From: an uncultured delta proteobacterium
GTDB lineage: Bacteria; Desulfobacterota; Syntrophia; Syntrophales; Smithellaceae
DNA: 64,000 nt
Direction: 5' to 3'
NCBI GenBank assembly: GCA_963753975.1
Contig: CAVWEH010000004.1
Coordinates: 1 to 64,000, forward strand
Shown: positions 7,039-54,211 of the stretch, in pieces
Layout of the letters: each line of letters starts with the position of its first letter
Numbering within the stretch: position 1 is the first letter of the stretch
Position numbers and translations under genes: made by a program
Notes under the pieces: generated by a model
Told to the model about the DNA's origin: nothing
Databases searched by the model: none
Seen by the model: only the letters and a program-made list of their open reading frames with translations

Positions 7039-7157
7039 AAGTGGAGGCTTCTCCGGCAGGAGCCGAAGGCTCACTAAAACAACACGACCTCCCGGGTCAC
7101 AGATCTTTCTTCCCCGGTCGGAACCGTAGATTTCAAGTCGCGGGATTAATTATTTCC
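7039..7157. ncRNA. Candidate structured non-coding element, copy A (short form)
   Basis: Three colinear blocks shared with 51092-51325; hairpins GAGCC-GAA-GGCTC and GACC-TCCCG-GGTC. Family not recognised. Confidence 0.5.
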
Positions 7158-7203: not shown

Positions 7204-7306
7204 TACCATTTCGATTTCAAAGGATAACGAGGCAGCGAGGAGGAGGCGCCGGAGGCGTATTGTACATACGTTGAAGAAGCCGACGACGATGCCAACAAAG
7301 TTAGCC
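7204..7306. mobile_element. MITE-like structured repeat, family 1, copy 1 (right end missing or diverged)
   Basis: Core GGAGGAGGCG..GAGGCGTATTGTACATACGTTGA.GAAGCCGACGACG.TGC.AACAAAG shared with 17383-17505; same left end TTA|TACCATTT. Confidence 0.75.
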
Positions 7307-17382: not shown

Positions 17383-17505
17383 TACCATTTTTAAATCAAA
17401 GAAGATATCGAGACGGCAAGGAGGAGGCGACGAGGCGTATTGTACATACGTTGAGGAAGCCGACGACGCTGCTAACAAAGATAGCACTTTGATTTGGCAG
17501 TGGTA
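17383..17505. mobile_element. MITE-like structured repeat, family 1, copy 2 (complete, 123 bp)
   Basis: Terminal inverted repeats TACCA....AAATCAAAG / CTTTGATTT....TGGTA, flanked by TTA on both sides; core shared with 7204-7306. Confidence 0.8.
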
Positions 17506-19799: not shown

Positions 19800-19888
19800 C
19801 CAATTCCGACGTGTGACCTCTTGTGACCTTCAGGTTATTAGGTTATATGCTTCGCCCGGCATCCGCCCGGCTAAGCTTTCGGAATTGG
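19800..19888. repeat. Intergenic inverted-repeat structure downstream of ftsZ
   Basis: CCAATTCCGA...TCGGAATTGG enclosing (GTGACCT)x2/(AGGTTAT)x2. Confidence 0.5.
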
Positions 19889-50033: not shown

Positions 50034-51002
50034 CTAAGGAGAAATTTTGGAGAATTTTTGTTTTTCATCTTCGGCCAATAAGCAGCCGGCAGCACAGATA
50101 TCCGCGCATTCACCGTCACATGGTTCAATATGAATTGTAATAACCGAATCGGGAAATCTTCGTCTGATTTTTAATTTTAATCCTTTAGTAATATTGTGGG
50201 AATCGACCACTGACATTTGCGGATTAACTTTAATATGAAATTCTATAAAACGAATATGCCCTGCTTTGCGTGTTTTCAACTGATGAAAACCATGAATGGA
50301 TGGCTGACAGCTTACAATTACATTGCGAATCCAATCCTCTTCTTCCGGCGGCAACTGGACATCCATTAAATCGCGAATAGAGTTTGCAGTTAATTCGTAA
50401 GCTGCACGCAAGATAATGACGGCAACAAATATAGCGGCGATCGGATCAAGCCAGTGTATCTTCGGATCGGGGAAAAGACTATGACCGATCCAAATCAATC
50501 CCAGGCTAATCATAACGCCCACGGAAGTATATACATCCGTCCGTAAATGCCAGGCGTCGGACTGGAGGGCAATGGAATCAGCTTCCTTACCTATTTGGAA
50601 AAGTTTCCGGGAAACAATAAAATTGACGACAGCGGAAAAGAACATAACCACAACTCCCCAGCCGGGAGCGTCTAGGGTTTGCGAAGAACTTATTTTTTTT
50701 ATGGCCTCGAATATAATCCAAAATGCCGCAACAAAAATAAGCGCCGCTTCCACCAAACCCGATATGTTTTCTATTTTTCCATGACCGAAGGGGTGCCGCT
50801 CATCAGCAGGGACACTGGAGGTTTTTACCGAAAACATGGCGATAATGGCAGCCAACAGATCCATGCCCGAATGAATGGCCTCCGATATTATTGAAACAGA
50901 ACCAATTAAAACACCGACAATTACTTTAAATAAAACTAAAAAGGAATTGGAAACGACTGATAATATCGCCACTCTTTCTTTGCGCTGCTGTAGAGACATC
51001 AA
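50034..51002 (-). CDS. Cation diffusion facilitator (FieF-like) with Cys-rich C-terminus
   Basis: SEAIHS..D, HPFGHGK.E, DAWHLRTD, HIEPCDGECADICAAGC. Confidence 0.95.
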   Translation of the reverse strand: MMSLQQRKERVAILSVVSNSFLVLFKVIVGVLIGSVSIISEAIHSGMDLLAAIIAMFSVKTSSVPADERHPFGHGKIENISGLVEAALIFVAAFWIIFEAIKKISSSQTLDAPGWGVVVMFFSAVVNFIVSRKLFQIGKEADSIALQSDAWHLRTDVYTSVGVMISLGLIWIGHSLFPDPKIHWLDPIAAIFVAVIILRAAYELTANSIRDLMDVQLPPEEEDWIRNVIVSCQPSIHGFHQLKTRKAGHIRFIEFHIKVNPQMSVVDSHNITKGLKLKIRRRFPDSVITIHIEPCDGECADICAAGCLLAEDEKQKFSKISP

Positions 51003-51091
51003 TTTAATTCTCCCGAAGTGGTTTTTACACTCTGTTTCAATATATCACGGCAGGGAATTGATTTCCCGCAAATTTTAAGTCGCCCGAAAAT

Positions 51092-51325
51092 AAGTGGAGC
51101 CCCCTCCGGTCGCAGATGTCCTTTAGGTTACAGGAGCCGGAAGCTTCCTAAAATAGTGAGACCCAAGCTTCAGAAACAAAGCGCATAACCTAAAGGTCAC
51201 GTCACTGCTGAAGCTTGCAGGTCGAATTATCCCGCAAAGCAGAGGACAGCGCGCCCTCCCGCGGTTCACGGCGCTTTCCTCTCCCTGCCGGAGCAGCGGA
51301 ATTCCAAGTCGCGGAATTGATTTCC
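51092..51325. ncRNA. Candidate structured non-coding element, copy B (long form)
   Basis: Homologous blocks to 7039-7157; stems CAAGCTTCAG/CTGAAGCTTG, AGAGGA/TCCTCT, CTCCGG+CAGG/CCTGCCGGAG. Confidence 0.55.
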
Positions 51326-51388
51326 TTTGCAACCAGTTCAAATTATGGTAGTATAAGTACCTTAATTTACTTTTAATTAATTACATAT

Positions 51389-52498
51389 ATGAATAGAAGC
51401 AAAAATGGAAATGTTTTGTCCTTTTTTAAAAATGCCACGGTCAGAGATTGGCAAGACTGGCGTTGGCAATTCAAAAATCGCCTTACAAAAGTGACACAAT
51501 TAGATCATTTAGATCATTTTCCAAGCAAATCACGGCTGCGGATGGAAAAGTTAAACGCCGTAACAGTTGTTTATCCAATGGCCGTAACTCCATATTATTT
51601 ATCACTTATTCAAATTGATGACGAAAACGATCCGGTCCGCGCCCAGTGCTTTCCGGATTTGCGGGAAATTTCTTGTCATAAGGACTATCCGGACGACCCA
51701 CTGGAAGAAGACATCCATATGCCGGTACCCAAACTAATACACCGCTATCCTGATCGCTGCCTTGCCATTGTTACTGAAGTTTGTCTTACTTATTGTCGAC
51801 ATTGCAATCGCAAGCGTTTCTGGTCGCAATCGGCACACCTTAGTTTAAAAACACGCCTAAAAAAAATTATCCCCTACATTTCTGAATCGCGGCAAATCAG
51901 AGAAGTTATTATCTCCGGCGGTGATCCGCTTATTTTTGACGATCAAGCGATAGAAACTTTGCTGGCCTCGCTAAAAGCGATACCGCACATTGAAGTTTTA
52001 CGTATAGGCAGTCGCGCCCCCGTTGTCATGCCTATGCGTATTACCAAAGAATTTTGCCGGATGCTCAAACGCTACCGGCCCTTATGGTTTAACACGCAAT
52101 TTAATCATCCGGCTGAAATCACCCCCGAATCCAAACAAGCCTGCAATATGATCCAAGAATCAGGAATTCCCGTTTCTAACCAGTCCGTTTTACTCCGGGG
52201 CGTAAATGACTCACCGGATGTAATGCGCAACTTACTTTACGGCTTGCAAAAGATAGCAGTTCGTCCTTATTATCTTTTCCATTGTGACCCGGTTAAAGGA
52301 TGCGAACACTTCCATACCGATTTAAAATCAGGAATAACTTTGATGGAAAAAATATGGAGTCAGTGCTCCGGTTTGAGTCTGCCTCAATACGTTCTTGATT
52401 TGCCGGGAAGTACGGGAAAGATGCCCCTTAATACAATGTCCGAAACGATAAAAAAAGACCGGCAAATGCACCAACATTATTTTGACAAGTTTATATAA
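51389..52498 (+). CDS. epmB: KamA-family lysine 2,3-aminomutase (EF-P beta-lysylation, EpmB-like)
   Basis: WQDWRWQ, HRYPDR, CLTYCRHCNR, SGGDPL, NQSVLLRGVND; adjacent to efp and epmA. Confidence 0.88.
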   Translation: MNRSKNGNVLSFFKNATVRDWQDWRWQFKNRLTKVTQLDHLDHFPSKSRLRMEKLNAVTVVYPMAVTPYYLSLIQIDDENDPVRAQCFPDLREISCHKDYPDDPLEEDIHMPVPKLIHRYPDRCLAIVTEVCLTYCRHCNRKRFWSQSAHLSLKTRLKKIIPYISESRQIREVIISGGDPLIFDDQAIETLLASLKAIPHIEVLRIGSRAPVVMPMRITKEFCRMLKRYRPLWFNTQFNHPAEITPESKQACNMIQESGIPVSNQSVLLRGVNDSPDVMRNLLYGLQKIAVRPYYLFHCDPVKGCEHFHTDLKSGITLMEKIWSQCSGLSLPQYVLDLPGSTGKMPLNTMSETIKKDRQMHQHYFDKFI

Positions 52499-52566: not shown

Positions 52567-53130
52567 ATGTACACCGCGAGCGATTTAAAAAAAGGATTGC
52601 GGCTGAAAATCGATAACGAGCCATATATTATCACCGAATTCAATTTTGTCAAACCGGGCAAGGGGCAAGCGCTCTACCGCACGAAGCTGAAAAACATGAT
52701 CACCGGAAGCCAGTTCGAAAGATCTTTCCGTTCAGTAGATACCTTCGAATCGGCAGACTTGCGAGAAAAGAAGATGCAATATTTATATAAGGAGGGAGAT
52801 AAATACTGCTTCATGGATAATGAAAATTTCGAGCAAATTTATTTAACGGAAAGTCAAATCGGTGACGCCAAAAACTTTTTAATTGATAATATCGAAGCGG
52901 AAATCTTGCTCTTTGAAGACCGTCCCATCGGCATTAGCCTGCCCAACTTCGTTGATTTAGTGGTTACCGAAGCTGAACCCTGGGCCAAGGGTGATACGGT
53001 ATCCGGCGCCACAAAACCGGTTAAAGTCCAGACCGGATATACGATTCAGGTACCGACCTTCGTTAGCGAAGGAGAAAAAATCCGGATTGACACACGCACG
53101 GGGGAATACCTGACCAGAGTTAAAGGTTAA
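52567..53130 (+). CDS. efp: Elongation factor P
   Basis: VKPGKGQA (modifiable Lys), KGDT, DTRTGEYLTRV. Confidence 0.99.
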   Translation: MYTASDLKKGLRLKIDNEPYIITEFNFVKPGKGQALYRTKLKNMITGSQFERSFRSVDTFESADLREKKMQYLYKEGDKYCFMDNENFEQIYLTESQIGDAKNFLIDNIEAEILLFEDRPIGISLPNFVDLVVTEAEPWAKGDTVSGATKPVKVQTGYTIQVPTFVSEGEKIRIDTRTGEYLTRVKG

Positions 53131-53136
53131 TTTCTT

Positions 53137-54075
53137 TTGACCGAATCATATTCAGATGACAACTTTTTATTGGCACGTAAGTCACAAGCTCTGCACCTGC
53201 GCGCCAGACTAATTCAATGTATCCGTCTTTTTTTTATTGAACATGGATTTTTAGAAGTAGAAACTCCGCTGAGAATCCCATCACCCGCACCGGAAGAACA
53301 TATTGAAGCATTTCCTTCGGGCAATTGGTTTTTACAAACCTCCCCTGAACTTTACATGAAAAGGCTTCTGGCTTCCGGTTTTCCGCTGATTTTTCAAATC
53401 AGCAAATGTTTTCGCGCAGGCGAAAGAGGCAGCCTGCACTTGCCGGAATTCACTATGCTGGAATGGTATGTTGCCGGATTCGATTACTGGCAACTCATGT
53501 CACAATGCGAAGAGATGATCTTTGCGGTGGCGAATAACATGGACATTGCTGGACATTGTTTCTTTCGTAATAAAAAAATAAATTTGATACCGCCTTGGGG
53601 GAAAATTACCGTGCAGGAAGCTTTTGAAAAATACGCGCCGGTTACCCTGGAAGAAGCTCTCGTTGCCGATAAATTTGATGAAACCTTGGTTGATTATATC
53701 GAACCTCGACTGGGTATTAATAGACCTGTATTCCTTTATGACTATCCGGCAAAATTGGCCTCTCTCGCTAAATTAAAGAGAAGTGATCCATCTGTAAGCG
53801 AGCGCTTTGAGCTTTATATCGGCGGCATGGAGATTGCCAACGGTTTTTCCGAATTGAATGATGCCAAAGAACAGCGACAGAGGTTTGAAGAAGCCTTGCG
53901 GCGCCGCGCTAAAAAGAATTGGACGCAATATTCCATGCCGGAAAAATTCTTGAACTCACTAACCAGCTTGCCACCCAGTGCAGGCATTGCCTTAGGCGTT
54001 GACCGTTTGGCCATGATCGTCGCCAACGTTTTACAAATCGACGATATGATCTATTTTACACCGGAGATGCTTTAA
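53137..54075 (+). CDS. epmA: EF-P lysine aminoacylase
   Basis: LQTSPELYMKRLL, HLPEFTMLEWY, ERFELY, GIALGVDRL; no anticodon domain. Confidence 0.95.
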   Translation: MTESYSDDNFLLARKSQALHLRARLIQCIRLFFIEHGFLEVETPLRIPSPAPEEHIEAFPSGNWFLQTSPELYMKRLLASGFPLIFQISKCFRAGERGSLHLPEFTMLEWYVAGFDYWQLMSQCEEMIFAVANNMDIAGHCFFRNKKINLIPPWGKITVQEAFEKYAPVTLEEALVADKFDETLVDYIEPRLGINRPVFLYDYPAKLASLAKLKRSDPSVSERFELYIGGMEIANGFSELNDAKEQRQRFEEALRRRAKKNWTQYSMPEKFLNSLTSLPPSAGIALGVDRLAMIVANVLQIDDMIYFTPEML

Positions 54076-54182: not shown

Positions 54183-54211
54183 TTGACAAGGGCATAATTT
54201 TCCTTTAGGTT
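54183..54211 (+). promoter_or_regulatory. Candidate sigma70 promoter of tolQ
   Basis: TTGACA-17 nt-TAGGTT. Confidence 0.5.

Follow-up and report, generated by a model that had tools for sequence, protein, structure and literature searches.

A probable pile-up of nested mobile micro-repeats with an initiator-tRNA-like core in a transporter-kamA spacer of a Smithellaceae genome

The DNA studied here, referred to as the window, is a stretch of 64,000 nucleotides (C4:1-64000) from a 2.43-Mb, 95%-complete MAG of an uncultured Smithellaceae bacterium. The locus occupies the spacer between a CDF-family cation efflux gene on the minus strand (50034..51002; TIGR01297 above cut-off, PF01545 and PF16916) and a KamA-family radical SAM gene on the plus strand (51389..52498), which is followed by efp (52567-53130) and epmA (53137-54075). 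An earlier sequence-only reading had placed the locus between a metal-efflux CDF gene and an epmB-efp-epmA operon. The CDF-superfamily transporter, the KamA-family radical SAM gene, efp and epmA are all there, but the name epmB comes from context only: the gene scores above the KamA subfamily cut-off and below that of EpmB, and is best called EpmB-like by context.

Both gene sets are preceded by promoter-like patterns. On the CDF side, a putative extended -10-like motif (51039..51047, minus strand) is a pattern match only, lying in a stretch conserved in close orthologues. On the other side, the motif TTTGCA-N14-TG-N-TA (51326..51354, plus strand) stands before the kamA/epmB-efp-epmA genes and occurs once in the window and at 20/20 CDF-adjacent loci, the same loci from which the pattern was derived. 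Just upstream of the CDF -10-like motif lies a 15-bp dyad, GGGAA-N5-TTCCC (51053-51067), which is kept in close orthologues and is a candidate operator of a metal-sensing regulator. A promoter and terminator scan of the region returned one of each, as expected from shuffles, and no Rfam family matched the region in either gathering or E-value mode. Among the contig sets of four sequencing runs, none spans the locus, and their alignments stacked on paralogous repeats.

The spacer holds a 223-bp composite (51094..51316, no strand assigned) made of a host A hairpin repeat, a host B hairpin module nested within it, and two micro-inserts; comparison with three empty orthologues (319 vs 96 bp) delimits it. 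It is inserted between ...ATAA and TTGA without target duplication. The TTGA (51317..51320, plus strand; TCAA on minus) lies directly outside host A, is present in the empty orthologues, and is a candidate IS200/IS605-type target tetranucleotide; TTGA or TTAA follows 14 of 28 end-motif matches, non-host matches included. Micro-insert 1 (51110..51130, minus strand, 21 nt) consists of a 14-nt core with one change and a TCTRCGA-type tail and sits in the 6-nt loop of the host A CCGG hairpin; it corresponds to a 21-nt gap in the G005 orthologue and in copy A (see below) and to 11 empty paralogous sites. Host B (51154..51246, plus strand) measures 71 nt without its insert. Micro-insert 2 (51186..51207, plus strand, 22 nt), the core with a CGTCACYG-type tail, lies at the host B loop/3'-arm border and corresponds to a 22-nt gap in the G005 orthologue and to 28 empty paralogous sites.

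The sequence-only reading had described the stretch as an enlarged copy, B, of a repeat whose other copy, A, lies at ~7041..7145. Copy A is indeed a host A element with neither host B nor insert, and the 21-nt insert at 51110-51130 was correctly recognised. The ~90 extra nucleotides exist as a 93-nt block, which is better placed at 51154-51246, before and not after ...GAGACC. The 10-bp stem CAAGCTTCAG (51164) / CTGAAGCTTG (51208) is perfect as described and belongs to host B (51164-51173/51208-51217). AGAGGA at 51241 and TCCTCT at 51277 are present as well, but the GCGCC/GGCGC part of that stem is not kept in the G005 orthologue. The 11-mer CCTTTAGGTTA (51120-51130) is, as claimed, the exact reverse complement of TAACCTAAAGG (51186-51196). 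The latter is part of the separate 22-nt insert within the 93-nt block, and the complementarity of the two inserts extends beyond the 11-mers across the whole 14-nt core (13/14).

Elsewhere in the window, a third copy of the 11-mer (at 54202) comes without the remainder of the core, and a third site (19812..19845, minus strand), in a host-D hairpin, shows the unit nested within itself. Another dispersed hairpin family, a unit target at other loci, has two copies here, at 7223-7305 and 17404-17485 (93% over 54 nt). At 19840-19875, and at many other loci, a second micro-module family of ~18-21 nt (CCCGGC...GCCGGGCG type) also enters host loops.

The history of the spacer was read from 30 fetched kamA loci, in 20 of which, this genome included, the CDF gene is adjacent. 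The core is found in none of the 19 other orthologous CDF-kamA spacers, and 16 of these have no repeat at all and measure 125-164 bp. In alignment, the G005 spacer carries the same 180-bp hairpin host with neither 11-mer, the G010, G011 and G013 spacers are empty, and against the G005 host this genome shows two additional gaps, one of exactly 21 and one of exactly 22 nt. By parsimony, the order would be empty spacer, then host, then inserts, and the polarity, gain here as opposed to loss in G005, rests on parsimony too. As far as orthologous sequences can tell, these alignments show that a 180-bp hairpin host (A with module B) entered without duplication and that two unit copies followed, one per hairpin loop and in opposite orientation. 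Opposite orientation alone makes the copies complementary. Two to three further orthologous spacers (L016, L019 and L023 are named) carry different repeat clusters upstream of kamA, so the spacer was struck independently several times.

The mobile unit consists of the core TAACCTRAAGGTCA, a 14-nt quasi-palindrome of the form TAACCT-NN-AGGTCA, and a tail of 4-8 nt, giving insertions of 18-22 nt in total that begin at the same base and whose tails fall into subfamilies. The 2.43-Mb genome holds 67 exact cores and 32 with one change, against 0-2 and 11-16, respectively, in three shuffles. An empty look-alike site, without duplication, was found for 71 of 86 cores, and one of the 15 others is the tRNA-fMet gene. 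Most cores are partnerless, and look-alikes of every part of copy B are numerous throughout the genome. Within the family, the core occurs in 103 of 116 genomes, with at least 10 copies in 56 and a range of 0-185, and even sister genomes can differ widely (89 in G021 vs 2 in G015); in the remainder of the phylum sample it occurs in 16 of 393 genomes, with 1-4 copies each, and among the genomes sampled high copy numbers are confined to Smithellaceae-type genomes. The 21-mer was located in Smithella/Smithellaceae-type assemblies and was absent from the viral contigs searched; five of its matches, which look like chance matches in coding sequence, were left out of the target analysis together with two further atypical rows. 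An assembly artefact was rejected, the unit being present in many independent assemblies.

Turnover of the unit is extensive. Among 182 sites in five relatives, counted without sites near locus ends, 81 have no host at the orthologous place in this genome and 10 have the host without the insert; the remaining sites are shared (22, some misaligned), partial (6) or unplaced (63). At four orthologous hairpins the tails differ between the two genomes. Head-to-tail arrays of up to five units occur in 7 of 116 family genomes, those of G020 sometimes or often lying beside assembly gaps. Only one site in 254 falls well within a long ORF, where six codons are added at a TAAC look-alike; in-frame insertions include an M48-peptidase-like ORF and a double unit in an IS91-type transposase. 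In this genome (G000), three- to four-fold nested stacks with different tails lie at C1:322740-322800 and 323727-323800 and show that different subfamilies inserted successively. At C5:682233-683355, a small HTH gene and a repressor-like gene are divergent, with a unit at the 5' end of the former; we read the pair as a phage-like switch.

At least eight unrelated families of hairpins receive the unit, as do the unit itself and two genes. Its targets comprise both host A hairpins, host B, host D, a mini-hairpin, CGTC-type REPs, the unit's own centre and, among the matches listed, GTAG-type and other repeats in phage contigs. Of the 75 host-B hairpins in the genome, 29 are filled. When 136 distinct targets were rebuilt in silico, the start of a stem arm coincided exactly with the junction in 49 and preceded it by one base in 29; other offsets gave 2-13, except +5 with 34, and the mirror strand gave 14 and 4. 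A third of the targets have their peak at +5 and some are without a hairpin, two points that tell against the explanation given below. Read from these rebuilt sequences, the counts show that the unit favours the border of the loop and the 3' arm. A different kind of repeat, ~50-nt TAAC...GTTA hairpins that we take to be similar to integron attC sites, was seen at C1:30991-31610, C5:433019 and C4:205159.

The best explanation of the stretch as a whole, and in our judgement a probable one, is a pile-up of non-autonomous mobile DNA. For the movement itself our preferred proposal, held with slightly less than even confidence, is that the unit travels as single-stranded DNA through a trans-acting enzyme, with conversion between paralogues in addition. 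A trans-acting nuclease or strand-transferase would nick folded hairpins at the loop/3'-arm border, the unit would be joined in without duplication, and copying between paralogous hosts would spread the filled states. More tentatively, the core piece may be a self-propagating, tRNA-derived, SINE-like element of 14-18 nt, written by an enzyme that reads hairpin shape, scarless, and adding six or seven codons in frame.

Several observations fit a process that dispenses with a dedicated enzyme. Captured once in a rare event, the unit would spread by template switching or short-patch gene conversion from one hairpin to another at stalled forks, with the help of a few bases of flank likeness. Tails track their flanks: the 21-mer is followed by C in 113 of 121 cases, 18-mers stand mostly before T or inside the unit, and CTATAG stands before G. 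Position -1 is A in 13 of 13 filled host-B copies vs 13 of 29 without the insert, orthologous sites can bear different tails, L430 was entered at a TAAC look-alike, and no enzyme was seen to follow copy number. The coupling of tails to flanks, the preference for A at -1 and the swapped tails argue for patch copying. The difficulty lies in targets whose right flank is unrelated (L246, L336), in GTAG-type and other unrelated repeats of phage contigs and in nesting at the unit's own centre, all of which need non-homologous entry, and in a copy number that runs from 0 to 185 within one family. Unrelated flanks and self-nesting argue for real insertion, and we regard conversion without an enzyme as a somewhat unlikely account of the whole pattern. 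A fresh target duplication as the source of the 21-mer tail was considered separately and rejected by comparison with target loops.

As regards the trans-acting enzyme of the preferred proposal, no Y1, IS110 or Y2 transposase was found in this 95%-complete MAG, and no Y1 in five other insert-rich genomes. GIY-YIG genes are present in 24 of 24 family genomes whatever the unit count, and Y1 does not follow copy number. Tyrosine recombinases (5 matches) and small GIY-YIG genes (3) of this genome have no special tie to the unit. Beside a host-A variant, an xerD-like gene lies in two overlapping frames (L517:1459-2494), by frameshift or assembly error.

Judged by its letters, the invariant 14-nt core is very probably a captured piece of an initiator tRNA-Met gene, U36-A49 in standard tRNA numbering, with C41>T closing the palindrome. 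The core equals positions 36-49 of initiator tRNA-Met genes letter for letter. Among the core matches listed in viral contigs, 60 of 121 stand in CYCA-core-NNNN-TTC (anticodon-arm) contexts, and ARAGORN called tRNA-Met(CAT) at 13 of 15 tested viral matches. Of 45 tRNAs, the genome's own tRNA-fMet alone comes within 2 mismatches of the core, differing at one core position, with the next best at three; the tRNA-fMet matches in the family all have C41, and the mobile form has T. Micro-insert 2, with its core resembling tRNA-fMet 36-49, agrees with the own tRNA-fMet at 15 of 16 positions. Extended by four bases, the core reaches G53, and G is the last base of all 27 18-mers in this genome; their C-N-N-G tail may represent T-stem 50-53 or come from the host. 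A T-stem reading does not suit the 20-22-nt tails.

One orthologous locus, in four records, contains a longer piece, tRNA-fMet 20-49 (up to 29/30), between the arms of a CGTC-type repeat. Identity stops at the core end (49-50) and not at 53, and the next four bases may be the host's. This long capture is a single event. Forms with C41 are rare, at most 4 per genome; with C41 in the family tRNA and T in the mobile form, this gives no sign of ongoing capture. Of the 20 C41 forms examined, chosen from multi-hit genomes, ~11 are inserts of the ordinary sort and 7 are tRNA genes or att-like copies, the longer piece accounting for 2; this search saw no ongoing capture from the own tRNA. Hairpin modules interrupt dead tRNA-Ser halves of this genome at the anticodon and T loops, which shows one way for tRNA and repeat DNA to meet. 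Compared with the own tRNAs, the other modules gave only a 12-13-nt tRNA-Leu D-arm match, which is not significant, and no rRNA motif was found in the assembly. In the main texts of the open-access literature, we found neither a tRNA-derived prokaryotic micro-repeat nor Smithella repeats.

That the likeness to tRNA-fMet is chance, and the unit an ordinary palindrome, is improbable. It is true that the match was noticed after the fact, that the consensus 18-mer reaches only 14/18 to the own tRNAs (p ~0.017), and that 18 of 8000 18-mers from insert-free repeats match some tRNA at 15-16 of 18 positions. Chance would have to account, however, for the exact core identity and its register in tRNA-Met genes, and for the 30-nt capture that ends together with the core. 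It would also have to account for the 30-mers with flanks: 2 of 24 contexts reach 24 and 25 of 30 to the own tRNA-fMet, and more than 22 is reached by 0 of 24,874 insert-free repeat 30-mers, a null made of overlapping windows.

Several tRNA neighbourhoods were noted alongside. At L524:1405-2130 (G000 C5 ~719297-720020), a small GIY-YIG ORF lies between the dead 5' half of a tRNA-Ser(CGA) and the intact gene. Stacked hairpin modules interrupt the dead half at its anticodon loop, and unit-holding modules interrupt the T loop of a tRNA-Ser 3' fragment downstream. Three homologues of the GIY-YIG ORF in relatives have no tRNA nearby. Att-like 3' copies, which mark integrated elements, were seen for tRNA-fMet in relatives at L529, L540 and L542, and for tRNA-Met, tmRNA and tRNA-Arg here at C2:544000, C2:406388 and C4:377098.

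A tRNA-derived core, one fixed and one variable end, and head-to-tail arrays are also what a SINE-like RNA route would leave, with tRNA-fMet fragments or unit transcripts reverse-transcribed or used as repair templates at nicked hairpins; G-U pairs moreover favour the minus-sense hairpin (-2.9 vs -1.1 kcal/mol). This route is nonetheless quite improbable: the tails form clonal subfamilies that do not reproduce the tRNA sequence the host has today, tail base and target loop do not correspond, and the only reverse transcriptase here has no link seen to the repeats. The latter, of 292 aa, follows an HTH gene at L001:1058-2244, and the two are possibly a retron-type defence pair.

The sequence-only reading had offered two explanations of the complementary 11-mers: a long-range pseudoknot gained or lost as a unit, possibly regulating either neighbour, or two opposite-orientation insertions of a dispersed 14-bp palindrome. 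The second is borne out by the history of the spacer, the copy number and the independence of the inserts. Of 87 cores, 63 have no other core within 150 nt, 20 have same-facing neighbours only, and 4 have opposite-facing ones. Among 12 A+B composites, fetched because they hold the core so that filled states are over-counted, 5 carry both inserts, 3 the first only, 3 the second only and 1 neither. The G005 orthologue of copy A (L464) has insert 1 beside an empty host B and so carries the first 11-mer only, an outcome that the sequence-only reading had itself named as one that would refute it. Compensatory changes between the paired 11-mers are absent, and 3 of 5 double-filled composites carry an uncompensated mismatch; in the composites and orthologues compared, no sign of selection for the 11-bp pairing was found.

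Pairing is physically possible according to folding models. The isolated duplex is predicted to be stable (-17.1 kcal/mol), a fold forced to hold it reaches -72.1 vs a minimum of -75.9 kcal/mol (difference 3.8), and the region has a moderate folding z of -2.08 on the plus strand (-1.40 on minus), so that the duplex could form if transcribed. The inserts, however, were gained independently and without compensation, and the element matches no Rfam family and is absent from 18 of 19 orthologous spacers. It also lies upstream of the promoter-like motifs of both the CDF and the kamA sides, and would by inference be in neither leader, the promoter positions being pattern matches. A regulatory RNA with a pseudoknot, serving the CDF gene or the EF-P operon, is largely refuted and very improbable, and the unit is most likely without function for either. 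Hardly more credible is a protein-binding operator selected at many promoters, which would suit the dyad symmetry and the almost exclusively intergenic copies but not the clean insertion inside repeats, the nesting, the arrays and the general lack of conservation at orthologous sites.

For the question of how ~20-nt elements such as SDRs and SMRs arise and move, the unit family supplies dozens of filled/empty pairs, a target rule based on structure, an intermediate of capture and, in tRNA-fMet, a likely source. What is new here is the exact match of the core to initiator tRNA-Met genes and the 30-nt piece of the family's own tRNA-fMet within a repeat; the probable tRNA-fMet origin and a testable target rule make the case of interest. 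Since filled and empty orthologous pairs are spread over 116 genomes with 0-185 copies, comparative genomics can put both origin and enzyme to the test. An activity that inserts short oligonucleotides without a scar and guided by shape would, if true, be of a new kind, and a tRNA-derived, SINE-like bacterial unit would be about the smallest possible mobile element. As a practical warning, stacked mobile palindromes can mimic pseudoknots and riboswitches.

Among known systems, the SDR1-8 elements of Nostoc punctiforme, which Elhai et al. reportedly described in 2008, are said to be ~20 nt long (21-27), to insert precisely, also inside other repeats and themselves, and to have no assigned enzyme. 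The unit is similarly ~20 nt long, precisely inserted, dispersed, polymorphic between relatives, free of duplication and nested; it differs in phylum and sequence, in its length of 18-22 nt and in its target, a hairpin border. We know of no tRNA origin proposed for SDRs. SDR5 inserts precisely into HIP1, according to the relevant part of PMC4390886. The SMR-A elements of Haloquadratum, as presented in sections of PMC3119063, are ~110 bp long, gene-less and without duplication, have inverted ends unrelated to known transposons, and insert inside palindromes of other gene-less elements, their mobilisation being called enigmatic. On that description, the unit shares inverted ends, the lack of duplication and the entry into palindromes of gene-less elements, but it is one fifth the size (18-22 nt), self-nests and forms arrays.

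Host A has other relatives. The same sections of PMC3119063 describe PATEs and IS200-IS605 derivatives as having no terminal inverted repeats, near-terminal palindromes, no duplication and a constant tetranucleotide at one end. Host A compares with these in having no TIR, near-terminal palindromes, no duplication and a short targeting sequence, and differs in that its genome has no TnpA. Compared with 12 of the 65 listed Y1-transposase loci of relatives, it showed no flank likeness at 11, and one match is expected from repeat density. REP/REPIN-RAYT systems and CGTC-tagged REPs, in the portions of PMC3116915 and PMC3733652 that concern them, are dispersed extragenic hairpins in mosaics, the CGTC type without a dedicated transposase. 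CGTC-type repeats are among the unit's targets, but the unit differs from the repeats portrayed there in that it lacks a GTAG/CGTC tag, does not form a doublet and is carried by such repeats as a passenger; this genome has no RAYT.

Assignment to the REP/REPIN-RAYT group is not supported, as no cognate Y1 flanked by the repeat was found in this genome; nor is assignment to MITEs, with no target-site duplication and no parent transposon found, or to integron cassettes and attC sites, as most empty targets have no G|TT core (the recombinase search used PF00589). Eukaryotic SINEs are non-autonomous repeats with a tRNA-derived core. The unit differs from them in its 18-22 nt, its internal tRNA piece and the absence of duplication, tail and RNA-stage evidence; it is like them in being non-autonomous with a tRNA-derived core. 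By analogy, the unit resembles SDRs and SMR-A most in how it would work.
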